A stretch of 58,385 bases of DNA from an uncultured Cytophagia bacterium (GTDB lineage Bacteria; Zhuqueibacterota; Zhuqueibacteria; Residuimicrobiales; Oceaniaggregativiventaceae): NCBI GenBank assembly GCA_964413725.1, contig CAYPUH010000001.1, forward strand, positions 1 through 58,385. Reading direction: 5' to 3'. Below are positions 11,755-55,738 of the stretch, piece after piece. The translations under genes were made by a program, and so were the position numbers. The notes beneath the pieces are model-generated. The model saw only the letters and a list, made by a program, of their open reading frames with translations. It was not told the DNA's origin and did not search any database. Numbering within the stretch: the first letter of the stretch is position 1; each line of letters begins with the position of its first letter.

Positions 11755-12093
11755 GTACTCACATCCTCCCTGGAGTAATGATGATTTTGGCATATCGCCG
11801 GAAGCCATATGCCGAGCCGATGCAGATTGTTTCCGGACATTCCCTGTGGCAATGCCTTGTCAGTACTGCGTCCTATAGCGGCTCTATGTCAATAACTATT
11901 TGCTATGGGTAAAACGAGAATGTGCCCATATAGGATGGGCACAATTATGTTGAGCAAAATCCAATAAATATATCGTTTTTTCCAGTAAATGTCAATTCAA
12001 AAGTGAGGACCCCATTCTTGTGAAACGTGATACGGGACCAGATGGCCATAACCCAACAGATCAAACAACGAGTCGTCTCAAAACTGCAAGAGC

Positions 12094-13647
12094 TCACTCT
12101 CTGGGGACCAATTGCTGCACCACATCGATGACACTGCCGTCGCGGAATTCGATGAGGGCGACGACCTTGTCGGTGAATTCGGGCTTTTCGGGTTCTCCCG
12201 TCATGTCGTGAGCGATCTTGTAGAGCTCTTCGATGGGTTTGATGGGCAGATCGCTGCCTTTGAGTCGATCGCAAAGATCCTGGCGTCGCGGATTGATAGC
12301 GATACCCCGTTCGGTGACCAGCACGTCGATCATCTCTCCGGGCGCGGTGACGGTGGTGACATCATCGACGACGATGGGCAGGCGGTTGCGTACCAGTGGC
12401 GCGGTGATGATGGTGACCTGCGCATCGGCAGCGTCCACAAAACCTCCGATACCGTGAAGCAACCAGCCGTCCGAGTGGGTGTTGACATTGACGTTAAAAT
12501 TCAGATCGATTTCCGTGGCTCCCAGGACAGACGCCTTGACCCGATTGGCAAAACAGCCTTTGGTGTGATAGTTGTACGAGACAAAGGGGTTGGTTGCGAT
12601 ATGTTTGGGATTGTCACGCAACGACCGCACGCCGTCCAGATCAAAGCTTTGTCCATCCAGGATGAATTTGGTTTGACCGTTCTTGAGCATGTCCACCATA
12701 TAGCGGGTCGATCCCCCGCGTACAAAGTCCGCGACCACATTGTGTTCCTCCATAAGCCGGCTCATATACTGGACAAAGGCCAGAGACACCCCTCCGGCGC
12801 CTGCCTGAAAGGAAAATTCGGGTTCCATCAGGATGCCGCTGTCCCGCACCAGCCGGGCCGCATAGTCGGCGATGAGAAGCCGCGTCGGGCTTTTGGTGAT
12901 CCGGGTGGTGCCGGAAATGATCTGGCTCGGATCGCCCAGAGAGTCCACTTCTACCACATAATCCACATGTCCGCCCTCGATGCTCCAGGGAAAGCAGGGA
13001 AACGGGACGAGATTGTCGGTCACGACCACCACGGTGTCTGCCCATAACGAGTCGGCCAAAGCAAACCCCAGGGGACCGCAGGCACTGGGTCCATAGAGCC
13101 CGTTGGCATTGCCATGGGTGTCGGCACAGGGTGCGGCAATAAAGGCCACGTCGATATGGAGGTCACCATCCTGAATCGCCCGGTAGCGACCACCGTGAGA
13201 TCGCAGAATGGCGGATCGTTGCATCTCTCCCAGCGAGCAGGCTCTTCCCACGGGACCGTTCATGGAGCCTTCCACGTGAGAGACCACCCCGGTTTTGATA
13301 TGATTGACCAGAGGTTCATGAACCGGAAAAAGAGCCGAGGGTGCCAGAACGAGATCCCTGAGATGGCGGCCGGCCAGCAGGTCGAGTACGGTATTGATCA
13401 GCCTGTCGCCATTGCGGAGGTGGTGATGAAAACTGATGGTCATGCCATCACGCAAATGACAGGCCTCGATGGCTTCATCCAGGGAGGACAGAAGCTTGTT
13501 TTGATATTGACTGGCTGCAGGTATCCTGGCACTGTATTGTTTGCCGCCACCGGTATCGGCACAAGCCCCGGCAAAGGGTCGGAGCGTGCGGCCGTCGAGT
13601 TCTTTGGGTATCCAGCGTCCGACGGCATTCTGAATCCTGTCCATCAT
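12094..13647 (-). CDS. citF: Citrate lyase alpha subunit / citrate CoA-transferase
   Basis: 517 aa, a typical CitF length. The sequence is CitF-like throughout by eye, and the gene lies 12 nt downstream of the citD-citE fusion. Confidence 0.88.
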   Translation of the reverse strand: MMDRIQNAVGRWIPKELDGRTLRPFAGACADTGGGKQYSARIPAASQYQNKLLSSLDEAIEACHLRDGMTISFHHHLRNGDRLINTVLDLLAGRHLRDLVLAPSALFPVHEPLVNHIKTGVVSHVEGSMNGPVGRACSLGEMQRSAILRSHGGRYRAIQDGDLHIDVAFIAAPCADTHGNANGLYGPSACGPLGFALADSLWADTVVVVTDNLVPFPCFPWSIEGGHVDYVVEVDSLGDPSQIISGTTRITKSPTRLLIADYAARLVRDSGILMEPEFSFQAGAGGVSLAFVQYMSRLMEEHNVVADFVRGGSTRYMVDMLKNGQTKFILDGQSFDLDGVRSLRDNPKHIATNPFVSYNYHTKGCFANRVKASVLGATEIDLNFNVNVNTHSDGWLLHGIGGFVDAADAQVTIITAPLVRNRLPIVVDDVTTVTAPGEMIDVLVTERGIAINPRRQDLCDRLKGSDLPIKPIEELYKIAHDMTGEPEKPEFTDKVVALIEFRDGSVIDVVQQLVPRE

Positions 13648-13659
13648 GTCCTCCTCGGG

Positions 13660-14856
13660 TTATTCCGGTATCTGCTTTGCCGCTCTGGCCATGGCGAGGA
13701 TTTTCTCAGCCCTGATGACCACGGGGCGATCGATCATTTTGTTTCCCAGCGACGCGACGCCGCTGCCGCGACGGTTGGCCTCTTCAACGGCCTGCACGAT
13801 GGCCTGTGCGGTTTCGATCTGGTCCTGTGTGGGCTGAAAAGCCCGGTGCACGGGATCGATCTGACCGGGGTGGATCACACCCCGGCCGTCGAAACCGAGC
13901 TGAATCGATTCCAGCGTGCTCTGATGCAATCCCTCCGTGTCCGCGACATCTGAATAGACCGTATCCAGGGCCTGGATTCCGGCGGCCCGGGCCGCCAGAA
14001 CGATTTGGTTGCGCGCATGGAAACTCTCACGGCCCTCGCGGGTGCGCTGGACTCCGATGTTGGCGGTAAAATCTTCCGCGCCAAAACACAGCGCCACCAC
14101 CCGGTCACTGGCGGTCGCAATATCTTCGGCGTGCAGCACACCGGCGGCGGATTCGATCAGGGGCATCAACAGGATTGGATGATCCAGCTGATGCATCGAT
14201 TCGAGCTCGCGCAGCTGTTGGTCGACAACAGCGATATCCTGTGCCGATTCACATTTTGGAATCAACAGCGTATCCGGGATCCCGTAGAGGATGGCATCCA
14301 GATCCCGTTTGCCGGTGTCTGTGGACAGGGGATTGATGCGAACGATGCGTTCACTGGTGCCAAAATCGACGGTCATCAGCGTGTTGCGCACCAGGAGTCG
14401 GGCCTGATCCTTGGCTTCCGGAGAAACGGAATCTTCGAGGTCGAGGATGATCGAGTCGGCACCGAACAATCCGGCATTCAGGGCCAGGTCGGGCTGGTTG
14501 CCCGGGAGATACAGCCGGCTTCTTCGCAGGCGATGGGGCTGAGGGGGAGCAGGGCGGTGTTTCATTTTGGGCAGGACACCCGGTTCTTTGACATCGAGGA
14601 CCTGTCGTACCGCGGCCTCGAGACGGGCCTGAAGGACATAGTCCAGCGCGCCGCGGTCGAAAAGCCGGATCGCGGCGTGCTCACAACCGAGCGCCTGAAC
14701 GGTTTCCCGGGTCAGTTGAATCAGGGTCCGGCCAAACAGGGCTTTGATCGAACTCTCCAGATCAATTTCAATCCCTCCCGTGGATCGGGGTTCGAGTTCG
14801 ACACAACAATCTCCCTTTTCAACCCGGCCCACACGAACACTCTCTTGAGGGGGCAT
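13660..14856 (-). CDS. citE: Fusion of a citrate-lyase acyl-carrier (CitD-like) domain to the citryl-CoA lyase beta subunit (CitE)
   Basis: The N-terminal part VGRVEKGDCCVEL..ESSIKALFG..DRGALDYVLQARLEAA aligns by eye with E. coli CitD (AGTLESGDVMIRI..NSSVEKQFG..DKGALDCILRARLEA). The rest is CitE/HpcH-like (RRSRLYLPGN..DLEDSV). I chose the start at ATG 14856 because AAGGAG lies 5 nt upstream. The ORF is open back to 14922. Confidence 0.85.
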   Translation of the reverse strand: MPPQESVRVGRVEKGDCCVELEPRSTGGIEIDLESSIKALFGRTLIQLTRETVQALGCEHAAIRLFDRGALDYVLQARLEAAVRQVLDVKEPGVLPKMKHRPAPPQPHRLRRSRLYLPGNQPDLALNAGLFGADSIILDLEDSVSPEAKDQARLLVRNTLMTVDFGTSERIVRINPLSTDTGKRDLDAILYGIPDTLLIPKCESAQDIAVVDQQLRELESMHQLDHPILLMPLIESAAGVLHAEDIATASDRVVALCFGAEDFTANIGVQRTREGRESFHARNQIVLAARAAGIQALDTVYSDVADTEGLHQSTLESIQLGFDGRGVIHPGQIDPVHRAFQPTQDQIETAQAIVQAVEEANRRGSGVASLGNKMIDRPVVIRAEKILAMARAAKQIPE

Positions 14857-15290
14857 GGGCACTCCTTGTATGGGTAATGATTCTGCTGAAGGATGCGGAT
14901 CGATCTCTCGGTCCGGTCGCATGTGTTTATTAAATGAATGACTGTTTTGAGTTTACTTAACTGTGCAGGCATTGTCAATAAAAAAATTGCGAGACAGAGG
15001 GAACGGGTCTCAAAAAGGGTTTACTTTATCCGGTGAATTTCATACCGTTATCAAAGGAGGGTCGATTTATGGTTTATAGTCACTGCACCATCAGAGCCCG
15101 CATGAAGAGAAGAATCACCAAACAGCCTCATGCAAAGCCGCCAGGAAAAGATAAAATTCGCAAAAGGAAGAGCCGGATTCCATGCGAAGCACCGAATCTC
15201 CAATACATGCAGGATAATATCGTCATTTGACGGGTCAAACCAACTCTTGATGCACATGACAGTATTCACCTTCAAATTCGGACTGAGCCC

Positions 15291-16712
15291 ATGTCTTCTC
15301 ATACTCGAAACGCCTCGCTGTTTGAATCGCTGATTCCGATCCTCGCATTGATTTTGTTTCTCGGTATCAATGTATTGGTCTTTGATGGCAGTCCGCATAT
15401 CCCTCTGATCTTTGGAACCGTGGTTGCGGTTCTGGTGGGCATGCGGCTGGGGTATCGCTGGCCGGATCTGGAGCAGGGAATTGTCCATGGTATCGTCATC
15501 GCGTTGCAGGCCTGTCTGATCCTGATGGTGATTGGCATGCTGATCGGCACCTGGATCGTCAGCGGTATCGTGCCGACCATGATTTATTACGGGCTGACCC
15601 TTTTATCGCCGTCGATATTTTTGGTGACCACTTGTATCATCTGCGCCCTGGTGTCGCTGGCCACCGGCAGCTCCTGGTCCACGGCGGGGACGGTGGGCGT
15701 GGCTCTGATGGGGGTGGGGCAGGGACTGGGCGTGCCCCTGCCCATGGTGGCCGGTGCGATCATCTCCGGCGCCTATCTCGGCGATAAAATGTCGCCGTTG
15801 TCGGACACCACCAATCTGGCGCCGGCGGTGGTGGGAACCGACATGTTCGGACACATCCGGCATATGGCGTATACGACGTTGCCGGCGTTTGCCATAGCCC
15901 TGGTATTGTATACGATACTGGGATTCTTTGTGGCCACCCAATCCGCTCAGATCACCTCCATCGATGCGATTTTGACCACCCTGCACACACAGTTTCAACT
16001 GGGATGGTATTACCTGATTCCACCGGCCCTGGTGATCGTGATGGTGGTACGCCGGATTCCGGCGTTACCGGCGCTGTTGGGCGGGGCGGTATTGGGGGGT
16101 ATCTTTGCCGTGGTCTTTCAGGGTGTTCCTGTGGCCCAGGTGCTGGACGTGGCGCAGAATGGCTATGTGGCCGACACCCGACTGGATTCGGTGAATGAAT
16201 TGCTGACGCGGGGCGGCATGGAGAGCATGCTCTCCACCGTGGCGTTGATCATCACCGCCCTTTCCTTTGGCGGGGCGATGGAAAAGACCGGAATGTTGCA
16301 GGTAATCGCCGGGGCCATCCTGACGCTGGCGAAAAATACCGCCGGACTGATTATCTCCACGCTGTTCACGTGTATCAGCATGAACATCATCGCTCCGGAT
16401 CAGTATCTCTCCATCGTGGTTCCCGGCCGGATGTACAAAGATGCCTATGCCCGCCGCGGACTGCACCCCAAAAACCTCTCCCGGGCGCTGGAGGACGGCG
16501 GTACGCTCAGCTCGTCTCTGGTCCCCTGGAACACCGGCGGTGCCTATATGTGGGCCACACTGGGTGTCTATCCCCTGGCCTACCTGCCGTTTGCGTTTGT
16601 CAACCTGATCACCCCCATGGTGTCGGCGTTTTACGGCGCCACCGGCTGGACGATACAACCGGCGGATGAGGAGGATGCGGAAGAGAGTGAGTTGAATGAC
16701 AAGGGAGGTTGA
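15291..16712 (+). CDS. nhaC: NhaC-family Na+/H+ (or organic-acid) antiporter
   Basis: 473 aa and polytopic. The NhaC-like segment is MVIGMLIGTWIVSGIVPTMIYYGL. The gene is divergent from the citrate-lyase genes. Confidence 0.88.
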   Translation: MSSHTRNASLFESLIPILALILFLGINVLVFDGSPHIPLIFGTVVAVLVGMRLGYRWPDLEQGIVHGIVIALQACLILMVIGMLIGTWIVSGIVPTMIYYGLTLLSPSIFLVTTCIICALVSLATGSSWSTAGTVGVALMGVGQGLGVPLPMVAGAIISGAYLGDKMSPLSDTTNLAPAVVGTDMFGHIRHMAYTTLPAFAIALVLYTILGFFVATQSAQITSIDAILTTLHTQFQLGWYYLIPPALVIVMVVRRIPALPALLGGAVLGGIFAVVFQGVPVAQVLDVAQNGYVADTRLDSVNELLTRGGMESMLSTVALIITALSFGGAMEKTGMLQVIAGAILTLAKNTAGLIISTLFTCISMNIIAPDQYLSIVVPGRMYKDAYARRGLHPKNLSRALEDGGTLSSSLVPWNTGGAYMWATLGVYPLAYLPFAFVNLITPMVSAFYGATGWTIQPADEEDAEESELNDKGG

Positions 16713-19478: not shown

Positions 19479-20339
19479 TTAATTTTCTTTAATGATTTTA
19501 AAACACAGCGTGTCGGTGAACGTTTTTACCGCCGAGAAATAGCCCTGTCCGCCCGTAATATTATCATTTTGATAGGGATCCAGCTGTAAAGAATCAGCCA
19601 ACTGACGGGCTCTGTTTTGTTGATCGGGGGGGAAATCATCCCATGGCGGCAAAAAGGATGAATCCCTGGCTGTAATGGCAATCTCATAGGGGATGGTGAC
19701 AATCTGGTTTCCGTTGCTTCCAAAATCCCAGTGAGGCAGAAAACGTGGTGATATAACGGTATCCAGAGACGCGGTAAAAATGTCCGGGAAAGAGGGTTCA
19801 AGGGCGATAATTTTTAGTTCATAGCATAGTGCATTTTGACTCGAAGCCCAGGAGAGCTCGCCTCCTTTTGTTTGTACATAATTCGAGTAGGGCGATGGTT
19901 GGTGAAACCGGAACGAGAGGGTGTCGCTTCGGGATGTTGGATCCAGACAAAAATCCCCGGGTACTGTGATTGCCGCAGAGCAGAAAACAGATGACGGATC
20001 GGTTTGTACCCGGAGAGAGTAGTGTGTGGACGGAAGGATCGGAAAATGGTGTTGAGAGAGAGTATATACTCCGGGAATGGATTCGTCGAGTGTTGCAGAA
20101 GCCCCTTCATGGCTCAGAATGACGCGTGCCCCACTCACATCCTGTGGCATCGATTCGGGACGAGTCCATCCAACGACCACACTGATCATTGCGTAATCGG
20201 GAGAAATTTTGCTTTCAACATAGGGTACACGTAAAGAATCAGGATCCACAAGCACCGGGTCTGTGGTACAATTGAACACAGTGGATAGTAAAACTATAAC
20301 GGGTATTAGCTTTTTCAGGTTTGTTGATAATGTGTACAT
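19479..20339 (-). CDS. Lipoprotein, DUF4249-like (partner of the upstream TonB receptor)
   Basis: A lipobox (LLSTVFNC) follows the start at MYTLSTN (ATG 20339). The ORF is open back to 20372. The DUF4249 call rests on size, lipobox and position 13 nt downstream of a CarboxypepD_reg TonB receptor, not on a search. Confidence 0.55.
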   Translation of the reverse strand: MYTLSTNLKKLIPVIVLLSTVFNCTTDPVLVDPDSLRVPYVESKISPDYAMISVVVGWTRPESMPQDVSGARVILSHEGASATLDESIPGVYTLSQHHFPILPSTHYSLRVQTDPSSVFCSAAITVPGDFCLDPTSRSDTLSFRFHQPSPYSNYVQTKGGELSWASSQNALCYELKIIALEPSFPDIFTASLDTVISPRFLPHWDFGSNGNQIVTIPYEIAITARDSSFLPPWDDFPPDQQNRARQLADSLQLDPYQNDNITGGQGYFSAVKTFTDTLCFKIIKEN

Positions 20340-20362
20340 TTTACAGAATTCTGGATAAAAAA

Positions 20363-20376
20363 TTGTTCGCAAGGGG
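20363..20376. repeat. Left arm of the inverted repeat bracketing the lipoprotein gene (TTGTTCGCAAGGGG)
   Basis: It is the exact reverse complement of 21223-21236 and extends to 17 of 18 matches. It lies 8 nt beyond the stop codon of the 20385-21191 gene. Confidence 0.8.
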
Positions 20377-20384
20377 GCACATTA

Positions 20385-21191
20385 TTATGGAGTGGGAGTA
20401 AAAACTCGATAAAACATGTCAATAGAACTTAAACGGTTGTCCCAGCTGCCCAGATTTGAGCAATCGAGTGTATGACGAGGGCTATATGATGTGGGTTTGC
20501 CCGCTTCCCAGTCATTATCTTCACCACCCCTATTCGCATCTTCCCAGATCTTAAAATTCACTGGCCTTGCGATATATCCATAACCACTATAGTGAGATCG
20601 ATCGTCTGTCCAGCCAAATGAACTTGTCTGGTCATTAAAATTACCTAAATAATCAAAACCACAACAGGACTGCGAATTTGCACAATTCCATATTACTTTA
20701 TGAAACCAGCCGTAGTCAATGGCTGCCTGGGAAAAGGTAAAACTATCCCCAGTATAACCGGCTCCCTTGTAAATTTTGGCTAAATGCCAACATAAAGTAA
20801 CGGCTGTTTTATGCAATCGCCTAGATTGGAATTGTAGTTGGTTCACGGATTTGATTCTATTTTCTTTGGACAATACAACATTAAATGACTGGTCAGCAAA
20901 ACCGTTGTTGTTGAAATAGAGGATATTATAGGTAGGATTTCCTTTTGTTTCTACTTTTACAATTTTTATGTTGCTATAAAGATTCTTGCCAGCAATTTCA
21001 AGTGCTTTTTCATTTACAGCATTTGGTATGGAATCAGTCATTAAGAATTTTTGGTTCTCATAAAACAACTCTGATTGATTAGTATTTTCAAGATTTGTTG
21101 TAGGGTCGGAAATACTGTTTTCGTTTTCTTGCCCACATGCAAAAAGAAAGAAACTCGCCAATAAACCGATAACAGTCAATTTTTTTTTCAT
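20385..21191 (-). CDS. Lipoprotein with a C-terminal beta-gamma-crystallin-like double Greek-key region
   Basis: 268 aa with the lipobox LFAC. The C-terminal half has two segments ending in the crystallin-type motifs NDQTSSFGW and WDNRLSSIDMFY, each preceded by aromatic-Gly patterns (IYKGAGYTGDSFTF, FKIWEDANRGG). The gene is visibly AT-rich relative to its neighbours. Confidence 0.7.
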   Translation of the reverse strand: MKKKLTVIGLLASFFLFACGQENENSISDPTTNLENTNQSELFYENQKFLMTDSIPNAVNEKALEIAGKNLYSNIKIVKVETKGNPTYNILYFNNNGFADQSFNVVLSKENRIKSVNQLQFQSRRLHKTAVTLCWHLAKIYKGAGYTGDSFTFSQAAIDYGWFHKVIWNCANSQSCCGFDYLGNFNDQTSSFGWTDDRSHYSGYGYIARPVNFKIWEDANRGGEDNDWEAGKPTSYSPRHTLDCSNLGSWDNRLSSIDMFYRVFTPTP

Positions 21192-21222
21192 TTTAAAGCC
21201 CTTTCAAATTTTCGTTGTGAGT

Positions 21223-21236
21223 CCCCTTGCGAACAA
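21223..21236. repeat. Right arm of the inverted repeat bracketing the lipoprotein gene (CCCCTTGCGAACAA)
   Basis: It is the exact reverse complement of 20363-20376 and lies 31 nt upstream of the ATG at 21191. Confidence 0.8.
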
Positions 21237-21792
21237 ATTTAAATTCTTTCCGACCTATTATTGTGTACCAAGTGGATTCGTTTATTACAGGATAATAATA
21301 ACCATATAAAAGAGAAATGATTGTTTCTGAGCAATTGACGTACAATAGTACTATTATTAGAAATATTTAAAATAATAACGAATCGTTAATGATTGGAGAT
21401 GTTGATGAGTAAGATGGTGTGAATAAAAGAGGTGAAATCATGGAGGAAACAAAAACCAGTATATTACTTACAAGGGTTTAAATAAACAATATACTTGTTC
21501 CTGTTTATCCTCATTTACCCCATTTATTATAACAAATATATTTATTATGTTAAAAGCAAGTCTTTTTTTGCTTTTGCCCTAAAAATGGGTATATATCAAT
21601 GCGATTCAAGTCCTGTTGAGGTCTGAAATCATGTATCAATCGAATTCGAGTCTTTCCTGTCTATTGGTATTGTCGTATCGTATTAGAAATATTCTACTAT
21701 TCAGTTGTGTTCCAGTGTATGAACACGAAAAGCATCGCCGCAAGGCTTGGCTTGTTTGGCGGGGTAAATGGCAACCCTTATCAAAGGAGGAT

Positions 21793-22011
21793 ATGATGAA
21801 AATCAATGAAGGAACCACCGATCGATGGATTCGCGCGATTTTGGGGATTGTGTTGTTGATTGTGGGGATCGTTGCGCTGTCAGGGACCTGGGCCTGGATT
21901 CTGGGCATTGTGGGCGTTATCTTGTTGATCACGGCTGTGACCGGATTTTGCGGATTGTATGCGATATTGGGGACGCGTACCAACAAATCCAGGACCGAAC
22001 AGGGTGGATGA
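21793..22011 (+). CDS. DUF2892 (YgaP C-terminal-like) small membrane protein
   Basis: MMKINEGTTDRWIRAILG...ITAVTGFCGLYAILG shows the two TM helices and the TGxCxxYxxxG motif typical of DUF2892. AAGGAGG lies just upstream (21784-21790). The 5' part of the tracked ORF (21616-21792) has no coding character. Confidence 0.8.
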   Translation: MMKINEGTTDRWIRAILGIVLLIVGIVALSGTWAWILGIVGVILLITAVTGFCGLYAILGTRTNKSRTEQGG

Positions 22012-29875: not shown

Positions 29876-32800
29876 ATGTCTATTACACATAACAGTTCTA
29901 TACCCGGCCGTCCCCCCCGTCTGGGTCTTTACCATCCGGACTTTGAGCACGATGCCTGTGGTATCGGCTTTGTCGCCGACATCAAACAGGGGGCCTCGCA
30001 TGAGATGTTAGACCGGGCTGTGGACATTCTCGACCATCTCAAGCATCGCGGCGCGGTGGGCGGCGATACCGCTACCGGCGATGGCGCCGGTCTGATGATG
30101 CAGATCCCGGATGCCTTTTTCCGGTCTACTCTGGGAGCCGAGATGACGCTTCCTCCTGAGGGCCACTATGCGGTGGGGATGGTCTTCCTGCCCCAAGATG
30201 CCGAGCAGCGTCGGCGATGCCGTCAGCGCTGCGAAGAGGCCGTTACGGCTCAGGGCGGCGTGATCCTGGGATGGCGCCCGGTGCCGGTGCAGTCCGCCTG
30301 CCTGGGCGAGCTGGCTCGCTCCACCGAGCCGGTGATCGAACAACTGTTCATCGGTCGCGGCGAGATTCCAGCCCTTCGCCTGGAAAGCCGGCTCCTGGTG
30401 ATGCGTCGATGGATGGAAAAAGAGATCCGTGCTGAAGAGGATCCACAGGGCTATTTCTATGTCGCCAGTCTCTCCAGCCACAAGATCGTCTATAAAGGCC
30501 TGATGACCGGCGATCAGATCGCTACCTATTACCCGGATCTGAAACAACCCGAGTGTGCCAGTGCGTATGTGATGGTGCACCAGCGCTACAGCACCAACAC
30601 CTGGCCCACCTGGCCGCTGGCGCAGCCGTTCCGTTTTCTCGCCCATAACGGCGAGATCAACACCTTGCGCGCCAATATCAACCGGATGAAGTCCAGAGAA
30701 CCGCTGATGCAGTCCGACGTCTTTGACACGGACATGGAGACACTGCGTCCTATCATCCAGGAGGGCACCAGCGATTCTTCGGTTTTTGACAACGTCCTGG
30801 AGTTGCTGGTTCTCTCCGGACGCTCGTTGCCGCACGCGATGATGATGATGATCCCCGAGGCGCACGGTCCGCGCATTCCCATGAGTGCGGACAAGCGCGC
30901 CTTTTATGAATACCACTCGGCGTTGATGGAACCCTGGGACGGTCCGGCGGCGGTGACGTTTTGCGATGGCCGCTATATCGGTGCCACCCTGGACCGCAAC
31001 GGTCTGCGTCCGGCCCGCTATACCCTGACGCGCGACGGGTTGATCGTGCTGGCATCCGAGAGCGGTGTTCTCGATATCCCGGCAGACCGGATTCTCCGGC
31101 GGGGACGGTTGCAACCCGGAAAGATGTTTCTGGTGGATCTGGTGCAGCGGCGTGTGGTGCCGGATCAGGAGATAAAGTCGCGCATTGCCCGCCAGCGTCC
31201 CTACCGGCGCTGGATCCGGGAGAACCGCATCGAACTGAGGGGCCTGTTCGCCCCGTCCAAGAATCCGGCCTGTGACGAATCCGTGTTGATTCGTCTGCAG
31301 CATGTGTTTGGATACACGCGCGAAGAGATCCGCATGCTCATCACGCCCATGGCCTCACATGGCCAGGAGCCGGTGGGGTCCATGGGCAATGATGCCGCCC
31401 TGGCCGTGCTTTCTGATCGTCCACAACTTCTCTTTTCCTATTTCAAGCAGCGATTTGCCCAGGTGACCAATCCCCCCATCGATCCGTTGCGGGAAGAGCT
31501 GGTGATGTCTCTGGAGAGCTTTGTGGGCACCGAACAGAACATCCTTCGCGAAGACCCCGAATATTATCGCGGGCTCAAGCTGTCTCATCCCATCCTCACC
31601 CCGGCGGATATGGGACGGATTCGCGAGGCCGATCATCCCGAGATCATCACCCGAGATATCGACATGTTGTTTGCCGTTGAGGAGAACGGACGGAGCATCA
31701 AAGACGATTTACATCGTCTGTTCGAGCAGGCCGAAGCGGCCATAGATGAAGGCGTTACCATGGTGATTCTCAGTGATCAGAATCTGAACCGCAACCAGGC
31801 TCCCCTGCCGGTGCTCCTGGCCGCCTCGGGGTTGCATCAACATCTCATCCGTCGCGGCAAGCGAAACCGGGCCGGCATTATCGTCGAGACCGGTGAAGCC
31901 CGCGAGGTGATTCATTTTGCCCTGTTGATCGCCTATGGTGTGGATGCAATTTCTCCCTATCTTGCTTTTCATACCATCCACCATCTGGCCGAAACGGGCA
32001 TGCTCGCGCATCAGAACTCTCCTCATGTGGCGATGGACGCCTATATCACAGCCATCAAGAAAGGCGTCCTCAAAACCATGAGCCGGATGGGAATTTCCAC
32101 TCTGCACGGATTTTTCGGATCCCAGATTTTTGAAGCGGTGGGTGTCAATGAAGAGGTGGTAGAGACCTATTTTACCGGTACGCCCTCCCGTATCGGTGGC
32201 ATCGGTCTGGAAGAGATGGCTCGCGACGTGAGCCGGCGTCATCTGAACGGATTTCCCGATATGGGGTCACCGGATCCCTTGCTCGAGGCGGGGGGTGTGT
32301 ATCACATCCGTCGTGGCGGGGAGCATCACATGTGGACCACCGAGGCGATCCATCAGCTACAGACGGCGACGCGTCGTCAGGATTATGCCCAGTTCAAATC
32401 CTTTACCGCGCATATGAACGAGCACTCGACGTCACAGGCCACGCTGCGAGGGCTGATGCGAATCCGGGAGCGTCCGTCGATTCCTCTTGAGCGGGTGGAA
32501 CCGGAGGAGGTGATCACCTGCCGGTTTGTGACCGCCGCCATGTCGTTCGGCTCCATCAGCAAGGAGGCGCATGAGGCTCTGGCCATTGCCCTGAACCGGG
32601 TGGGGGGACGCAGCAATTCCGGTGAGGGAGGCGAAGATCCGGTGCGCTATCAGTCGTTGCCCAATGGCGACAGCAAGCGATCGCGCATCAAACAGATCGC
32701 CTCCGGCCGTTTTGGTGTGACCACAGAGTATCTCATGAACGCCGATGAGGTGCAGATCAAGATGGCACAGGGTGCCAAGCCCGGGGAGGGGGGACAGCTG

Positions 32801-34444
32801 CCGGGACACAAGGTGACGGCCGAGATCGCCCGGGTGCGCTATACCACGCCGGGGGTGACTCTGATCTCGCCGCCACCGCATCACGATATCTATTCCATCG
32901 AAGATCTGGCTCAGCTCATCTATGATCTCAAACAGGTCAATCCACGGGTCAACGTTTCGGTGAAACTGGTTTCCGAAGTGGGTGTGGGGACCATCGCCGC
33001 GGGCGTGGCCAAGGCCAATGCCGATCTGGTGTTGATCTCGGGTCACGATGGCGGCACCGGTGCCGCACCGTTGACATCAATCAAATATGCCGGATTGCCC
33101 TGGGAGCTGGGTCTGGCCGAAACACAGCAGACGTTGATTGCCAATCAGCTGCGGTCCCGGATCCGGGTGCAGGTAGACGGGCAGTTGAAAACCGGTCGCG
33201 ATCTGATCGTGGGCGCTTTGCTCGGGGCCGAGGAATTCGGGTTCGGCACCGCGGCTTTGGTCACGCTGGGATGTGTGATGATGCGCAAGTGTCATCTGAA
33301 CACCTGTCCGGTGGGTGTCGCCACGCAGGATGAACGACTGCGACGGCGTTTTTCCGGAACGCCAGAATATGTGGAATGCTATCTGCGATTTTTGGCCCGG
33401 GAGGTCCGGGAATGGCTGGCCGTGCTGGGCTTTGAACGTCTGGATGACCTCATCGGACGCACCGATCTGTTGGACATGTCGCCGGCGATTTCAGAGTGGA
33501 AAGACCGGCATCTCGATCTGCACCGAATCCTGGACGTCCCGGTGCCGGATGAGTCCCGCTACCGGCATCAGACCACCGAGGCGGTGGGGCATGATGTTGA
33601 TGCCCTGGATCATCATCTGATCGAACGATCCGCAGCGGCCCTGAACACAGGATTGCGCACCGAGATACAGATTCCCATTCGCAATGTGCACCGCACGGTG
33701 GGTGCCACACTGAGCGGTCAGTGGATCGAGCGGCACGGGGCCAACGGTCTGCCGGAGGATACGCTTACCGTCCGTTTCACGGGTTCGGCCGGTCAGAGCT
33801 TCGGGGCGTTTCTGGCGCGTGGCATGACCTTTCGATTGTCCGGCGACGCCAACGACACCGTGGGAAAAGGTCTGACCGGAGGGAAGCTGATCGTGGTTCC
33901 GCCCGAGAACGCCCGCTTTGATCCACAGGACAATGTGATCATCGGCAATGTGGCGCTCTATGGTGCCACCTCGGGAGAGCTCTATGTCAATGGTCTGGCT
34001 GGAGAACGGTTTGCGGTGCGAAACAGTGGTGCCCGGGCTGTAGTCGAGGGGGTGGGAGACCATGGCTGTGAATATATGACGGGCGGTGTGGTGGTGGTGC
34101 TGGGACCCACCGGAAATAACTTTGCCGCCGGTATGAGTGGCGGGATCGCTTATGTCTTTGATGAAACGGAACTCTTTGACACGCGATGCAATCTGGATAT
34201 GGTGGATCTGGAATTGGTCTGGAATGCGGAAGATCAGAAAGAGCTCAGGACATTGCTTCAGACCCATTGGGAATTAACCCACAGTCCGCGTGCCCGGATG
34301 ATACTGGATCGCTGGGAGGAGCTGTTGCCGCTGTTTGTCAAAGTGATGCCCATCGATTATCGTCGTTCGCTGGAACGTATGCGGCTGGAAGCGGAAGCGG
34401 ATCTGGAAACCGTCGCCGCCACCGAGGAGGTGTATCATGGCTAG
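29876..34444 (+). CDS. gltB: Glutamate synthase large subunit
   Basis: 1522 aa. It has the Ntn-amidotransferase start (HDACGIGFVA), the FMN/Fe-S central domain and the C-terminal GXGXG domain. Confidence 0.97.
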   Translation: MSITHNSSIPGRPPRLGLYHPDFEHDACGIGFVADIKQGASHEMLDRAVDILDHLKHRGAVGGDTATGDGAGLMMQIPDAFFRSTLGAEMTLPPEGHYAVGMVFLPQDAEQRRRCRQRCEEAVTAQGGVILGWRPVPVQSACLGELARSTEPVIEQLFIGRGEIPALRLESRLLVMRRWMEKEIRAEEDPQGYFYVASLSSHKIVYKGLMTGDQIATYYPDLKQPECASAYVMVHQRYSTNTWPTWPLAQPFRFLAHNGEINTLRANINRMKSREPLMQSDVFDTDMETLRPIIQEGTSDSSVFDNVLELLVLSGRSLPHAMMMMIPEAHGPRIPMSADKRAFYEYHSALMEPWDGPAAVTFCDGRYIGATLDRNGLRPARYTLTRDGLIVLASESGVLDIPADRILRRGRLQPGKMFLVDLVQRRVVPDQEIKSRIARQRPYRRWIRENRIELRGLFAPSKNPACDESVLIRLQHVFGYTREEIRMLITPMASHGQEPVGSMGNDAALAVLSDRPQLLFSYFKQRFAQVTNPPIDPLREELVMSLESFVGTEQNILREDPEYYRGLKLSHPILTPADMGRIREADHPEIITRDIDMLFAVEENGRSIKDDLHRLFEQAEAAIDEGVTMVILSDQNLNRNQAPLPVLLAASGLHQHLIRRGKRNRAGIIVETGEAREVIHFALLIAYGVDAISPYLAFHTIHHLAETGMLAHQNSPHVAMDAYITAIKKGVLKTMSRMGISTLHGFFGSQIFEAVGVNEEVVETYFTGTPSRIGGIGLEEMARDVSRRHLNGFPDMGSPDPLLEAGGVYHIRRGGEHHMWTTEAIHQLQTATRRQDYAQFKSFTAHMNEHSTSQATLRGLMRIRERPSIPLERVEPEEVITCRFVTAAMSFGSISKEAHEALAIALNRVGGRSNSGEGGEDPVRYQSLPNGDSKRSRIKQIASGRFGVTTEYLMNADEVQIKMAQGAKPGEGGQLPGHKVTAEIARVRYTTPGVTLISPPPHHDIYSIEDLAQLIYDLKQVNPRVNVSVKLVSEVGVGTIAAGVAKANADLVLISGHDGGTGAAPLTSIKYAGLPWELGLAETQQTLIANQLRSRIRVQVDGQLKTGRDLIVGALLGAEEFGFGTAALVTLGCVMMRKCHLNTCPVGVATQDERLRRRFSGTPEYVECYLRFLAREVREWLAVLGFERLDDLIGRTDLLDMSPAISEWKDRHLDLHRILDVPVPDESRYRHQTTEAVGHDVDALDHHLIERSAAALNTGLRTEIQIPIRNVHRTVGATLSGQWIERHGANGLPEDTLTVRFTGSAGQSFGAFLARGMTFRLSGDANDTVGKGLTGGKLIVVPPENARFDPQDNVIIGNVALYGATSGELYVNGLAGERFAVRNSGARAVVEGVGDHGCEYMTGGVVVVLGPTGNNFAAGMSGGIAYVFDETELFDTRCNLDMVDLELVWNAEDQKELRTLLQTHWELTHSPRARMILDRWEELLPLFVKVMPIDYRRSLERMRLEAEADLETVAATEEVYHG

Positions 34445-35912
34445 TATATCCGGATTTTTAAACTTCAAGAGAGAGAATACCCTCAAACGACCTGTGTCCG
34501 AGCGAATCCGGGACTTTGGGGAACTGGAGCGGCCGCAACCCGAAGCCGGTCTCAGGCATCAGGCAGAACGGTGCATGGATTGCGGTGTGCCCCATTGTCA
34601 TTCCATGGGATGTCCGCTTTACAATGCCATTCCCGAGTGGAATGAGCTGGTGCATCAGGGACGCTGGCGGGAGGCTCTGGCGGTGATGGATACCAGCAAC
34701 AATTTTCCGGAGTTTACCGGTCGGTTGTGTCCCGCCCCCTGCGAAGACGCCTGTACGCTGACACTGGACGATGCGCCCGTGACCATCCGGCAGATCGAGT
34801 GGGAGATTGCCGAACAGGGATGGCGAAACGGCTGGATCGAGACCCGAACGGCGTCTGTTCGCAGCGGACATCGTGTGGCCATCGTGGGATCCGGACCGGC
34901 GGGTCTGGCCGCGGCTCAGCAACTGGTCCGACGCGGTCATGAGGTGGTGGTCTTTGAGCGATCGGATCGGGCCGGAGGACTGCTTCGGTACGGGATTCCG
35001 GATTTCAAGCTGGAAAAACATATTGTCGATCGTCGTCTGGCTCAGATGAAGACCGAAGGCGTCGTTTTTGAAACCGGAGTCGAAGCCGGCCGGGATATCT
35101 CGTTAAAGTATCTCCGGCGTCAGTTCGATGCGGTGGTGCTGGCGATCGGGTCCACCATTCCCCGCACCCTGACCTGCGACGGCGCCTCACTCGAGGGGGT
35201 ACATACCGCAATGGCTTTCCTGACGCAGCAGAACAGACGGCTGGCGGGTGAACGCATACCCGCACCTCAGGACATCGATGCCCACGGCAGGGATGTGGTG
35301 GTCATTGGCGGCGGAGATACCGGCTCCGATTGCGTGGGCACGGCGATCCGGCAGGGTGCTTGCTCTGTCCGCCAGATCGAGATCCTGCCGCAACCGGTGT
35401 CTTCCATGCCCGGTGCCGGGGCATGGCCGTATCGGGCCCGGATGTTGCGAACCAGCAGTTCACAGGAGGAGGGATGTGACCGAAACTGGAGTCTGCAAAC
35501 CCGACGGCTAAAGGGAGAGAACGGGCATGTTCGGTGCGTGGAGGCCGTGGAGATTGAATGGTCGGAACCGGATTTCCGGGGGCGACAGACGATCAAGGAA
35601 CGTCCCGGCAGTGCACGAGAGTTTCCCGCAGATCTGGTGTTGGTCGCCATGGGATTTCTCCACCCCGATCCCGGCATGTTGCTTTCCGACGTTTCCATTG
35701 AATGCGGTACAAACGGGACCCTGCAGGTCGATACCGCCATGAAAACCACCCTGCCCGATGTGTTTGCGGCAGGCGATTGCGTGATGGGAGCCTCTTTGGT
35801 GGTCCATGCCATTGCCCAGGGACGACGGGTGGCGGCGCACGTGGAAGGATATTTGTATAAAAAAAGCGATCAAGACAGAGGAATTATGGAGGAACATGAG
35901 AAGTACAGGTGA
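34437..35912 (+). CDS. gltD: Glutamate synthase small subunit (NAD(P)H-dependent)
   Basis: 491 aa with Cys clusters (CMDCGVPHC, CPAPCEDAC) and a dinucleotide fold (VAIVGSGPAGLAAA). It overlaps gltB by 8 nt. Confidence 0.95.
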   Translation: MASISGFLNFKRENTLKRPVSERIRDFGELERPQPEAGLRHQAERCMDCGVPHCHSMGCPLYNAIPEWNELVHQGRWREALAVMDTSNNFPEFTGRLCPAPCEDACTLTLDDAPVTIRQIEWEIAEQGWRNGWIETRTASVRSGHRVAIVGSGPAGLAAAQQLVRRGHEVVVFERSDRAGGLLRYGIPDFKLEKHIVDRRLAQMKTEGVVFETGVEAGRDISLKYLRRQFDAVVLAIGSTIPRTLTCDGASLEGVHTAMAFLTQQNRRLAGERIPAPQDIDAHGRDVVVIGGGDTGSDCVGTAIRQGACSVRQIEILPQPVSSMPGAGAWPYRARMLRTSSSQEEGCDRNWSLQTRRLKGENGHVRCVEAVEIEWSEPDFRGRQTIKERPGSAREFPADLVLVAMGFLHPDPGMLLSDVSIECGTNGTLQVDTAMKTTLPDVFAAGDCVMGASLVVHAIAQGRRVAAHVEGYLYKKSDQDRGIMEEHEKYR

Positions 35913-41790: not shown

Positions 41791-42112
41791 AACTTTATAA
41801 TAAAACCAATGATTTCGCAAGGTTTGATTCAAATCGATTCTGTTTTTCGACTAACATAATAAAATGATTTTAATGGAATTGTGGTGGTGTGTCCGGTCGT
41901 TCGACCGGATACTCGTGTGATGTGATATAAAAATGATGGTTTTGATTGGTTTTTATGGCAGTGATTTTTTATCATAAAGGATGCACAGGGCTGTTCTGAA
42001 TTTCGAGGCTCGATATATTTTTTTATGTGTATCAATACACCCCCTTCCTCTCTTTTTTTTCTTCCTGCAATTGGTTTCAAATAGACTCCATGACCTTGAT
42101 TGTTTTCCAGTT

Positions 42113-42144
42113 CGTGATATAACAATACGACATAGTTATATCAC
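42113..42144. repeat. 11-bp perfect inverted repeat CGTGATATAAC-10 nt-GTTATATCACG in the ORF-free leader
   Basis: Read directly from the sequence. ATTTTCAAT follows it. Confidence 0.5.
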
Positions 42145-42879
42145 GATTTTCAATCCTATATACAGATCAAACCGTATATATACTCAAGGATTTGTTCTAA
42201 TCTGTGCAGTTTTAGGTGCTTATTTTACGGGAGATAACCCTGATGTTCGAGTCACCAAACGAAGCTCGTAATATTTCCTCTCTTTTTATGGAAAGGGGCA
42301 TAATAATTGCTTATAAGTTTAGGTGATCGGTATCCAAAAGGTCACTTGGGTTAGGAATGAATGCATCATCGATTTAATTCTCAATTTTACCATGTTTTTC
42401 AAGTGTCTCGATATTTTGACCGTACTTGGTATTTTTGAGTTTAAGGCAATTGTACAGTCTTGATATTTTTAAAAGCAGAGAATTTATTGTCAGAGGGGAT
42501 AATATTGATACTATTCCACAGAAAGTAATAATTCAAAGATGCTTTACAAGGATGATAAGCGCCATTATTTCGTGATAGCGTCACTGTTTTATTACAAGAG
42601 TACTATCCCAAGGGGACTGCCTGCTGCGGTTATGTTCAACTATTTATTTCGGTGAGGTAAAAAGAATCGGTTTGGACACAATGCCCGAAAAACACTTGAA
42701 CTTTTAGGAACGTTAGATGGGATGGTTTCAGTAAACAAACACCAGAGAGGTATTGCCTGTATTTTAAGAATGATCTCTTTTAGCTGCTCATCCGTAATTA
42801 ACAGGTTATCGATTTTCTGAGGCTATCTGTTGTCTTGAAGCTCGGATATTCTGAACCCGTTAAAACAAACATGTGAGGA

Positions 42880-44124
42880 ATGAAGATGAAAAAGATCAAG
42901 GTTGTTTTGTGTGTTTTGTTTATGCTGAGTATACAGAGTTATGCTCAGCTGCTTGTTAAGGGTCATTTAGAGAGTACCGTGATGCGGGTGACGTCGTCTG
43001 GTGACGTTGGAATTGCTATCGGGGATGCCACTCCTGCTGCGACATTGGATATAGGCGGGGATTTACGAATTGGCACCGTGAGCGATGAAGGGAACAGTGA
43101 TGACATTTCGGTATTGGTTCTGGATGGTGGCATTGTGAAAAAACGAACCCTCACCGCCGACATCTGGGACGGCGATGCCACCGGTTCCGGGGCAGATGGT
43201 GTGGTCACCAGTGCCAATTTTTCCGGTAGCGCCAGCAAAACCCTGACGCTTGGCCGCAGCAATGGCTTGTCCGATCTGACAGCCTCTTTTAGCGATCGCT
43301 TTGAAGCCAACACTGACAATCAAAACCTCAGCTATACCAATCTCAATGCGCCCACCGGGCACTATACAACACACCGGGTGGATATCACCGGCGGCACGAA
43401 TGCCACCATCAGGGATTATTATGATCCCAATACCGACAATCAGAATCTCTATAATGTACTGGGTTATGATGGAGGGGATGCTGGTGGACGTAGTGCTGTC
43501 AATGTGGGTTCTCTAGCTATAGGTGCTGACGACGCCAATGGGGCAACTCTTCGGGCCGTGGGATTTGTGAATGTTGAGGGAAGTCAGCATATTCATAACA
43601 ACCTGACCGTTGCCTGGTCTGGCGACCCTGCTTCTGCTGCCTATATCGGTACCAATGCCCAGCCGACGAATCCTTCAGGAAACTACAAATTGGTGGTCAA
43701 TGGACCTCTCTATGTCCATGGCGGCGCTCGTATGTGTTTCGATGGAGGCAGTAAACTGGGTATTGGAGTTCCCAATCCTACTTCATCTCTGGCTATTGCC
43801 AATCTGCCCTCCGGCTCCGAAATGAATATCACGGCAGATAATACCGGTAATCTCTATCGGGACACTTCTTCCAGACGATATAAAGAGAATATCCAACCCC
43901 TGGACGATGATTTTGCAAAAATTCTACAACTCGCCCCTCGTTCTTTTATATATAAAGACAGTCAACTCGAATCTTTTGGATATATAGCAGAGGAACTGGA
44001 TGATCTCGGCCTGGATAACCTTGTCATTTACAATGAAGAGGGCGATCCGGAATCGATTCGGTATGACAAGTTATCCGTTTATTTAATCGAGATTGTTAAA
44101 GATCTGTATTCTCGAGTGAATTAA
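42880..44124 (+). CDS. Secreted tail-fibre-like protein with a C-terminal intramolecular-chaperone (peptidase S74) domain
   Basis: It has a signal peptide and the motif VGIAIGDATPAATLDIGGDLRIG, typical of tail-fibre-like proteins. NTDNQNL is duplicated. The C-terminal DTSSRRYKENIQPL...GYIAEEL...IRYDKL matches the S74 autoproteolytic chaperone signature (S..R.K.NI). The real start may be the second ATG (42886), 6 nt after GAGGA. Confidence 0.8.
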   Translation: MKMKKIKVVLCVLFMLSIQSYAQLLVKGHLESTVMRVTSSGDVGIAIGDATPAATLDIGGDLRIGTVSDEGNSDDISVLVLDGGIVKKRTLTADIWDGDATGSGADGVVTSANFSGSASKTLTLGRSNGLSDLTASFSDRFEANTDNQNLSYTNLNAPTGHYTTHRVDITGGTNATIRDYYDPNTDNQNLYNVLGYDGGDAGGRSAVNVGSLAIGADDANGATLRAVGFVNVEGSQHIHNNLTVAWSGDPASAAYIGTNAQPTNPSGNYKLVVNGPLYVHGGARMCFDGGSKLGIGVPNPTSSLAIANLPSGSEMNITADNTGNLYRDTSSRRYKENIQPLDDDFAKILQLAPRSFIYKDSQLESFGYIAEELDDLGLDNLVIYNEEGDPESIRYDKLSVYLIEIVKDLYSRVN

Positions 44125-44256
44125 GCTGATCTCAATTAATCGTCATTCCTGTACTGTGTGTTGCTCAGGCATGTTCTGATCAACCGTTTTTAAAATAATG
44201 TCCGCATACATTCTTGTCCAAAATAGATTTTTGCAACCAAAAGATGATAACAAGAG

Positions 44257-44294
44257 CTCACAGAGAACCGCAGAGGAAAAAGAGAGAAAGATAA
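44257..44294 (+). repeat. Member of the CACAGAG / AAAGAGAAAGA repeat family
   Basis: CTCACAGAGAACCGCAGAGGAAAAAGAGAGAAAGATA resembles positions 26803-26850 of the 170-bp repeat. Confidence 0.6.
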
Positions 44295-44435
44295 AGGGTA
44301 TAGATGGTTTGAAACTGTAAAATCATTGTTTAAGAGGTTCTTGTTAAGCAAGTTAAAATCAATGAAATGAACTGATTTAACAGCAATGTTTTTGAAACGA
44401 GAGAAATCCTGTTGAATCAACTTTTTTTTAAATTG

Positions 44436-44487
44436 TTTTTTCTCTCTGTGGTCTCACTTTTTGTTCTCTGAAAAACTCTGTTTTTTT
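44436..44487 (-). repeat. Member of the CACAGAG repeat family in inverted orientation
   Basis: The plus strand reads TTTTTTCTCTCTGTGGTCTCACTTTTTGTTCTCTGAAAAACTCTG. Its reverse complement contains GTGAGACCACAGAGAGAAAAA. Confidence 0.55.
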
Positions 44488-44926
44488 GTCGTCCTGTTTT
44501 AACCGTTTGGCTCAAAAAATGTATAAATGTCATATTTTCAGATGATAAATATGATACTTTTGCTTGTTTCGGACAGCAATGGTCCGAATAGAGATATCGT
44601 TCTGTTTTTGAGAAGGAATGAATATTTGAATATAGATAGAGGAATTATGGTACATTTTTAGGCATGATGGTTGCAATTTTTTGCTCAAAGGTTAGACGAC
44701 TTTGGATAATCTTTGTAAAGCATTGATATTAATCGTTCTTTTCCGTGGTCTCTGACTCTTTGGCCTTTCTTCTGTCACTGAATGATGTTAGTGTGACACA
44801 ATATTGTGACGTTTTCGATTGCAATCGATGAATAGGGACGGTTGATTTTAGCTCTGATCATTGAAAAAATTTTGCCAACGCAGGATGCAAAATTTTGTTA
44901 ATTCAGCATACTATAGGGAGAAAAGC

Positions 44927-45997: not shown

Positions 45998-46041
45998 GCT
46001 GCTGTAATCCTGATTTCCTCACTATGTTGAATGTCATCGTT

Positions 46042-52497: not shown

Positions 52498-52540
52498 AAA
52501 GACCTCTTTTTTGATAAGACACTTGGTTCGGATGGACTCT

Positions 52541-53974: not shown

Positions 53975-54022
53975 ATATACTCCTTGAATGTCATTTTACA
54001 ACTGTCAGGACAACCCCGATGC

Positions 54023-55735: not shown

Positions 55736-55738
55736 AGA

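Follow-up and report, generated by a model that had tools for sequence, protein, structure and literature searches.

The citrate lyase genes of an uncultured Cytophagia bacterium were analysed on a stretch of 58,385 nucleotides (nt; GenBank contig CAYPUH010000001.1). This 58-kb stretch is called the window, and all coordinates are given on the whole of it. The locus holds two adjacent genes, both read on the reverse strand, as are their parts and signals unless stated otherwise. The first gene (13660-14856) encodes 398 amino acids (aa) plus stop, in which a carrier-like domain, a linker and a citryl-thioester lyase domain are joined as a CitD-CitE fusion. The CitD/MdcC-type carrier-like domain takes up residues 5-88 (14593-14844), and within it Lys14 (codon AAG, 14815-14817) stands in the column of the serine that bears the prosthetic group, Ser14 of E. 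coli CitD. A Pro/Arg-rich linker with a semi-conserved EPGxLP motif runs from residue 89 to about residue 108-112 (14533-14592), and the CitE domain covers residues 109-398 (13663-14532). The second gene, citF (12094-13647), encodes the 517-aa alpha subunit of citrate lyase (citrate:acetyl-thioester transferase).

The fusion gene ends with TAA at 13662-13660 and is followed by a 12-nt spacer (13648-13659), in which GAGGAG was read as the ribosome-binding site of citF, and by the citF ATG at 13647. An AGGAG ribosome-binding site (14862-14866) lies 5 nt ahead of the fusion ATG at 14856. This start, giving 398 aa, was preferred over the ATG at 14922 because of this site and because of the gene call in an independent NCBI assembly (L084), where the fusion protein is identical and has the same start. 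A sigma-70-like promoter sequence, TTGACA-17 nt-TAAACT, is present upstream of the fusion gene (14950-14978) as a consensus match only, five such sites being counted against 2.3 expected in shuffles. From the gene junction, the ribosome-binding sites, the promoter-like site and the L084 assembly, the two genes look like a translationally coupled operon. A possible terminator, by pattern match only, is a GC-rich hairpin of 9 bp (11921-11943) that lies about 150 nt past citF and can be read on both strands. A riboswitch in the 434-nt divergent intergenic region was considered and rejected, as Rfam gave no match.

The domain assignment was examined by profile searches and structure modelling. Pfam placed PF06857, the acyl carrier protein (ACP) of citrate lyase and malonate decarboxylase (E 4e-20), ahead of PF03328, HpcH_HpaI (E 1.5e-61), in the fusion protein. 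The carrier-like domain scored 72.6 bits with the NCBIfam citD model TIGR01608, above its cutoff of 63.5, and CitF matched PF04223 (E 9e-155) and TIGR01584 (570.6 bits, above the cutoff of 501.45). For the CitE domain the best lyase match was the citE model TIGR01588 with 305.9 bits, below the cutoff of 443.4. Identity to the E. coli proteins was 45% for CitF, 40% for the CitE domain and 31% for the CitD domain. These matches, with the junction sequence, confirm the first-pass annotation, which had described a CitD-like domain, a Pro/Arg-rich linker and CitE in one gene with citF 12 nt further on.

The CitE domain keeps the DLEDS, E235, E261-D262 and K373-M-I-D376 motifs of CitE-like lyases; DLEDS, E235, E261-D262 and M-I-D376 are invariant, and the metal-binding and C-terminal catalytic Asp motifs of the superfamily are present. 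With CitF above its equivalog cutoff and these motifs kept in the CitE domain, the catalytic parts look intact. The nearest solved folds to the CitE domain are free-coenzyme A (CoA) lyases such as malyl-CoA lyase and CLYBL (Foldseek E 1e-26 for 5ugr and 6e-25 for 5vxc). The AlphaFold2 model of the full-length fusion was confident, with a mean predicted local distance difference test (pLDDT) of 93.1 and a predicted template modelling score (pTM) of 0.90, and this included the linker (pLDDT about 85-92). For the modelled carrier-like domain the only significant fold match in the PDB was MdcC (5vit_C), with a template modelling score of 0.72 normalised to the target; a PDB sequence search returned no CitD or MdcC relative. 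Residue 14 is located in the loop joining the antiparallel strands 7-10 and 17-23 of the domain model.

In E. coli CitD, Ser14 is the attachment site of 2'-(5''-phosphoribosyl)-3'-dephospho-CoA. The reference CitD was translated from the fetched E. coli citCDEFXG region and aligned by MAFFT, and Lys14 of the window protein fell under Ser14. A hidden Markov model (HMM) was built from E. coli CitD and 39 Ser-type CitDs obtained by a search of 1.84 billion representative proteins. It aligned to window residues 5-88 with no gap and at the highest posterior probability, placing Lys14 on the invariant serine (loop aGtLESsDvlv in the HMM, vGRVEKGDCCV in the window). The attachment loop of the window protein has neither Ser nor Thr, and the sole upstream serine, S6, belongs to the unconserved N-terminus. 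The lysine at the Ser14 column (EKGD versus ESGD) in a motif devoid of serine, first noticed by eye, is thus confirmed both by MAFFT and by the HMM check proposed along with it. A sequencing error at codon 14 was rejected, as the two assemblies agree and at least two changes would be needed to turn AAG into a Ser codon. A protein thiol carrier at Cys17 and Cys18 was also rejected, the column being Leu, Ile or Val in most members. As judged from the sequence, residue 14 offers no site for the canonical tether.

The survey of CitD-CitE fusions that had been suggested was carried out with the 120 best database matches and a scan of one genome per GTDB species, from which the best 80 loci among the matches listed were kept. 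All 120 database relatives are fusions of 393-443 aa from KSB1, Calditrichota, Krumholzibacteriota, Eisenbacteria and similar metagenome-assembled genomes (MAGs), and all have Lys at the column (120/120). The best 80 loci among the matches listed came from Calditrichota, Ignavibacteria, Bacteroidales, Acidobacteriota, Gemmatimonadota, Planctomycetota, Cloacimonadota, WOR-3, Anaerolineales and others. Over 201 fusions from more than 10 phyla the Ser14 column held Lys in 129, Arg in 69, and His, Ser and Asn in one each, so that a basic Lys or Arg was present in 198 of 201. The next column (15) in the same proteins was Ser in 134, Gly in 61, Asn in 5 and Cys in 1, and the column after was Asp in 200. 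Canonical CitDs have Ser, then Gly, Ser or Asn, then Asp, so it is specifically the attachment position that sets the fusions apart. Neighbour joining of 150 representatives placed the whole set of 42 Ser-type proteins in a single clade, and no Ser occurred in the 90-member clade holding the window protein.

The rest of the carrier-like domain was also conserved. G10, D16, S35, D67, G69, R78 and E80 were each at least 97% conserved over 199 fusions, S35 being equally conserved in canonical CitDs. Mean column conservation in these 199 fusions was highest in the CitE domain (0.70), followed by the carrier-like domain (0.53) and the linker (0.38). The earlier suggestion that the domain is a structural relic is therefore not borne out: it is not decaying, because its residues are conserved and position 14 is basic. 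Lys and Arg interchange within one operon type, as at L023, where a KSD motif occurs inside an otherwise Arg-type operon. This interchange argues for an electrostatic role, against drift and against a Lys-specific covalent modification, and the pattern indicates that residue 14 probably serves a retained, charge-dependent function.

Some relatives depart from the common arrangement. The lone fusion with Ser at the attachment column (L028:830-2044, motif SSD) sits inside an otherwise Arg-type clade and comes from a 3.5-kb contig of a Desulfuromusa MAG; reversion, variant or assembly error could explain this Ser. P0255 is a Thr-type fusion. In Zixibacteria (L088:10001-12726, also L089 and L090) an unfused Lys-type citD of 94 aa with the motif EEKGD is followed by separate citE and citF genes, and citC, citX and citG were not found within 10 kb of the L088 operon. 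Several more short stand-alone CitDs, which fall within the canonical clade or close to it, lack the serine and have Lys, Thr, Asp, Ala, Glu or Arg (for example P0164, P0227, P0234, P0128 and P0194). A homologue search with the unfused Lys-type CitD P0233 gave three proteins only.

Canonical citrate lyase requires CitC (acetate:SH-ACP ligase), CitX (holo-ACP synthase) and CitG (cofactor precursor synthase), and the linkage of their genes to the lyase was analysed. A Pfam scan of the 33 non-overlapping long open reading frames (ORFs) of at least 150 aa in the window gave no match to CitC, CitX or CitG, and none was found in the six-frame translation of the window by tblastn or phmmer when E. 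coli and Bacillota proteins served as queries. The same was found for about 86 independent loci with Lys or Arg at the column (Lys/Arg-type loci), covering about 1.3 Mb, where Pfam on called genes, tblastn and phmmer detected no citC, citX or citG. The absence of the three genes from the window, as originally recorded, is thereby corroborated and extended to the related loci. The Bacillota queries recovered the E. coli genes by phmmer at E 1e-20 to 1e-61, and cross-phylum sensitivity is therefore considered adequate.

The E. coli operon, citCDEFXG, served as control. A second, separate family of CitD-CitE fusions, from Bacillota and Desulfovibrio, keeps AGTLES[SC]D and has Ser in 17 of 18 members. 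Two of the three loci of this family that were read (L096 and L097) have the order citC, citDE, citF, citX-citG. Including E. coli, loading genes were adjacent at three of four Ser-type loci, compared to none of the approximately 86 Lys/Arg-type loci (hypergeometric probability about 3e-5, uncorrected for relatedness). Since Ser-type fusions have the loading genes and Lys/Arg-type fusions are without them, it is the loss of serine, rather than fusion, that tracks the loss of linked loading genes in the gene content compared. In the two Bacillota operons (L096:8884-14193 and L097:8887-14181) the fused citX-citG gene is followed by 2-hydroxyacid dehydrogenase, PrpD and fumarase genes, and a sigma-54 PrpR-type regulator lies upstream.

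The window pair was compared with known systems. The ATP-independent citrate lyase of Klebsiella pneumoniae and E. coli (CitDEF, EC 4.1.3.6), which goes with CitC, CitX and CitG, is built from the same three protein modules; the window CitF and CitD domain pass the corresponding NCBIfam equivalogs, and the net reaction is probably the same. It differs in that the window has CitD fused to CitE, Lys in place of Ser14 and no linked citC, citX or citG. The Bacillota Ser-type operons have the same fusion with citF directly after it. Their fusions form a family of their own, about 45-50% identical among its members and closer to canonical CitE, which keeps the serine motif and, unlike the window pair, is flanked by citC and the citX-citG fusion. 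In Ignavibacterium album, IALB_1146 (CitF) and IALB_1147 (a CitE-CitD fusion) have been described as an ATP-independent citrate lyase, possibly of the reverse tricarboxylic acid (TCA) cycle (Liu et al. 2012, PMC3362086), with no mention of missing serine or accessory genes. This pair has the two-gene architecture of the window and probably belongs to the same family, because the Ignavibacteria MAG loci L010, L036, L041 and L056 are members of it; the Ignavibacteria members seen are Arg-type and, unlike the window genes, lie in a larger operon.

Malonate decarboxylase (MdcA, MdcC, MdcD and MdcE; PDB 5VIT) offers a structural parallel for the carrier-like domain, which has the MdcC fold, and MdcA is a homologue of CitF. 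Its apo-MdcC scaffolds the complex and its catalytic subunits take free CoA esters, as proposed below for the window pair. In contrast to the window protein, MdcC keeps Ser25 and needs MdcB and MdcG, and the second reaction is a decarboxylation and not a lyase step. The free-CoA CitE-like lyases (malyl-CoA lyase, human CLYBL, M. tuberculosis CitE and citramalyl-CoA lyase), which include the nearest solved structures to the window CitE domain, and the Hydrogenobacter citryl-CoA lyase act on free acyl-CoA substrates, again as proposed here. The window lyase has both a carrier-like domain and CitF as partner, which these enzymes lack. Hydrogenobacter forms citryl-CoA by an ATP-dependent synthetase, not by CoA transfer.

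The interpretation favoured here, with a probability of about 60%, is that the two genes encode a self-contained citrate lyase which is independent of the prosthetic group and acts on free acetyl-CoA and citryl-CoA, the carrier-like domain docking the subunits and clamping CoA. The use of free CoA esters is suggested because the tether site and the loading genes are lost. CitF would transfer CoA from free acetyl-CoA onto citrate, giving citryl-CoA and acetate, and the CitE domain would split citryl-CoA into oxaloacetate and acetyl-CoA. A catalytic amount of free acetyl-CoA would thus replace the tethered cofactor, and therefore CitX, CitG and CitC would not be needed. Isolated alpha and beta subunits of citrate lyase reportedly act on acetyl-CoA and citryl-CoA, a result ascribed to Dimroth and Eggerer in 1975. 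Free CoA thioesters had already been proposed on first inspection as the substrates of CitF and CitE; the lack of a canonical tether site and of linked citC, citX and citG, together with the presence of these genes beside Ser-type fusions, fits this proposal indirectly.

The carrier-like domain would serve to dock CitE on CitF, much as apo-MdcC links the subunits in malonate decarboxylase. In that enzyme apo-MdcC still assembles, touching both MdcA and MdcE; Ser25 at its loop tip is directed into the MdcA site and lies about 10 A away from the ribose 2'-OH of a modelled CoA; and MdcD-MdcE accept free malonyl-CoA (PMC5534430). By analogy, loop residue 14 may point at the entrance of the CitF active site, where Lys or Arg could hold the free CoA ester by one of its phosphates. 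The most plausible one is the 3'-phosphate, which is missing from the tethered cofactor. Through this putative contact the cofactor would be held non-covalently between the active sites of CitF and CitE. As a side observation, 39 columns of CitF and 19 of CitE are at least 90% conserved in Lys/Arg-type proteins and unlike all four canonical sequences compared, many of them involving charge. Relative to these four sequences, CitE of the Lys/Arg type has gained R114 and R157 and lost Arg at column 198 and Arg/Lys at column 268, and CitF has gained H76, H391, H398, R256 and R447 and lost Arg at columns 130 and 255 and Lys at 468. Such shifts could mean that the cofactor is bound in another way, four canonical sequences being too few for a conclusion.

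The direction of the reaction was considered from free energies. From the values for citrate synthase and for hydrolysis of acetyl-CoA, the cleavage of citrate is estimated to lie near equilibrium at 1 M and would be strongly favoured at physiological concentrations, and because of this estimate cleavage to oxaloacetate and acetate is more likely than synthesis. The citrate-forming direction, which had been mentioned as an option in the first-pass annotation, gained no support from the present data and is thermodynamically doubtful for oxaloacetate. At the Lys-type locus L094 (11257-14828), the gene for ATP-dependent phosphoenolpyruvate (PEP) carboxykinase comes directly after citF on the same strand, and a pyruvate kinase gene is found 4 kb upstream. 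This gene order hints that the oxaloacetate produced feeds into PEP.

Several observations weigh against the free-CoA citrate lyase or speak for other explanations. Two thirds of the family have Ser at column 15, which a one-residue shift of register could make the attachment site; this idea is countered by the Gly found at column 15 in the window protein and 60 other members, at a column where canonical CitDs vary too (Gly, Ser, Asn). The comparison of loading genes covers linked DNA rather than whole genomes, which leaves room for unlinked citX, citG and citC or for a separate Ser-type citD. Moreover, the Ser-type fusion locus L095 of Desulfovibrio is also devoid of linked accessory genes within 10 kb, so linkage is not absolute, and in Geobacter sulfurreducens citXG is unlinked from the lyase genes (PMC2996986). 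The enzyme could on these grounds be a conventional holo-enzyme, its group borne by another residue or by a separate Ser-type CitD and supplied by unlinked CitX, CitG and CitC. This is judged quite improbable in view of the window loop without Ser or Thr, the equal conservation in canonical CitDs of S35, the only other invariant serine, and the contrast in accessory genes between the two types of loci; a basic residue would also be an odd choice for a loop still recognised by CitX. A different covalent cofactor on Lys14, bound for instance by an amide or phosphoramidate link as a new swinging arm, would agree with a solvent-exposed position at the loop tip and with the Lys that is invariant in the own clade of the window (120/120). 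It is nevertheless very improbable, as Arg, which cannot form such links, occupies the position in a third of the family and in the same operon type, and no candidate ligase is conserved beside the Lys-type module.

The substrate and the part played by residue 14 leave two further explanations, each unlikely but not to be neglected. The same chemistry could be applied to citramalate, homocitrate, 2-methylcitrate or another 2-hydroxy-tricarboxylate or dicarboxylate, whose thioester would be cleaved or formed. The score of the CitE domain under the citE equivalog cutoff weighs against citrate as substrate, and citramalate lyase is a known sister enzyme built in the same way. The Arg-type operons, which hold a homoaconitase-equivalog protein, a homoisocitrate/isocitrate dehydrogenase-like enzyme and a PrpD-like dehydratase, point in this direction too, and the substrate of the wider family may not be citrate. 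Against this, the window CitF passes the citF equivalog and, like the CitE domain, retains substantial identity to its E. coli counterpart (45% and 40%), and the Lys-type clade including the window has no homoaconitase-type operon. It is also conceivable, with rather low probability, that the enzyme uses free CoA while the carrier-like domain is only a scaffold, residue 14 contacting an acidic patch of CitF or filling the loop and not touching the cofactor. Apo-MdcC is needed for stable malonate decarboxylase without the prosthetic group (PMC5534430), AlphaFold2 predicts one confident arrangement of domain and linker (pTM 0.90), and the many charged positions differing between Lys/Arg-type and canonical CitF/CitE (four canonical sequences) would suit such an interface. 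However, a basic residue strictly at the attachment position is more specific than a generic interface demands, and it recurs in fusions and in several unfused, apparently independent non-Ser CitDs. The homologous position in MdcC, moreover, faces the active-site entrance and not a subunit interface (PMC5534430).

The Arg-type members were found in a conserved co-directional operon in several phyla (L008, L010, L011, L020, L024, L026, L044, L045, L050, L056, L057, L064, L066, L070-L075, L078, L080 and others), for example at L011:3833-12458. It contains genes for an HDIG protein of about 180 aa, a PrpD-like dehydratase, a fused LeuC/LeuD-type hydratase, a homoisocitrate/isocitrate dehydrogenase-like dehydrogenase, the CitDE fusion and CitF. 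The fused hydratase passes the homoaconitase equivalog TIGR00139 with 765-855 bits against a cutoff of 530. Among 83 sources compared, the dehydrogenase was present in 44, the HDIG protein in 41, the hydratase in 39 and the PrpD protein in 25. The operon may represent an undescribed tricarboxylate (citrate or homocitrate) pathway. A wider proposal is put forward tentatively, its chances being somewhat short of even. In it, a large cross-phylum family of citrate-lyase-type enzymes would have turned a covalent carrier into a non-covalent CoA clamp, with a Lys/Arg salt bridge, in place of the phosphodiester-bearing serine, to acetyl-CoA or citryl-CoA shuttling between CitF and CitE, giving a two-protein lyase independent of ATP, cofactor loading and CitC. 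In the Arg-type members the module would provide the first or the last step of an undescribed tricarboxylate pathway of five genes, made up of the HDIG protein, the PrpD-like dehydratase, the homoaconitase-type hydratase, the homoisocitrate dehydrogenase-like dehydrogenase and the lyase.

The neighbouring genes of the window were also analysed. A divergent NhaC-family antiporter gene on the forward strand (15291-16712) was judged to lie outside the module; its product passes the Na+/H+ antiporter equivalog TIGR00931 with 508 bits against a cutoff of 370. The first-pass annotation had linked it to the lyase as a possible carboxylate transporter, and this link was rejected: the gene is adjacent in this species only and not conserved beside the module, being absent at 82 other loci and in the closest syntenic relatives (L092 and L093). 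The close relatives share the synteny of the fusion, CitF, SecD, SecF, STAS and PurA without NhaC. Glutamate synthase large and small subunits are encoded at 29876-35912, and a branched-chain amino-acid cluster with leuD, leuC, an acetolactate-synthase-type thiamine pyrophosphate enzyme and dihydroxy-acid dehydratase at 51883-57433. The window leuCD share only about 29-32% identity with their homoaconitase-type counterparts in the Arg-type operons and probably have no connection with the lyase. Low-G+C stretches occur at 20001-22000 (0.39) and 42001-46000 (0.41-0.43), compared to 0.50-0.60 around them, and the latter includes an ORF (42880-44124) with a Peptidase_S74 domain (endosialidase and tail-fibre chaperone), which suggests that this segment is phage-derived or horizontally acquired.

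A literature search found no report of the Ser-to-Lys/Arg change, of absent loading genes, of the breadth of the family or of a cofactor-free citrate lyase, and the Caldithrix and Melioribacter genome papers do not discuss the fusion or the serine change. The fusion was already noted in 2012 in I. album; the change of serine to Lys or Arg had apparently gone unreported. It bears on metabolic reconstructions of uncultured phyla, which score citrate lyase as present or incomplete from matches to citD, citE and citF and whose calls often feed arguments for the reverse TCA cycle or citrate fermentation. The phyla concerned include KSB1, Calditrichota, Ignavibacteria, Acidobacteriota, Gemmatimonadota, Planctomycetota, Cloacimonadota and Bacteroidales. 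Since the Lys/Arg-type family cannot work like the textbook enzyme, the citrate lyase calls in them need another biochemical basis. The contrast between Ser-type loci with citC and citXG and Lys/Arg-type loci without them makes the question directly testable with two recombinant proteins. If the free-CoA mechanism is true, the family would be a natural case of a carrier protein that lost its covalent cofactor yet kept a role, and the pair would constitute a minimal citrate lyase of two genes, suited to expression in other hosts with no need of CitC, CitX and CitG.

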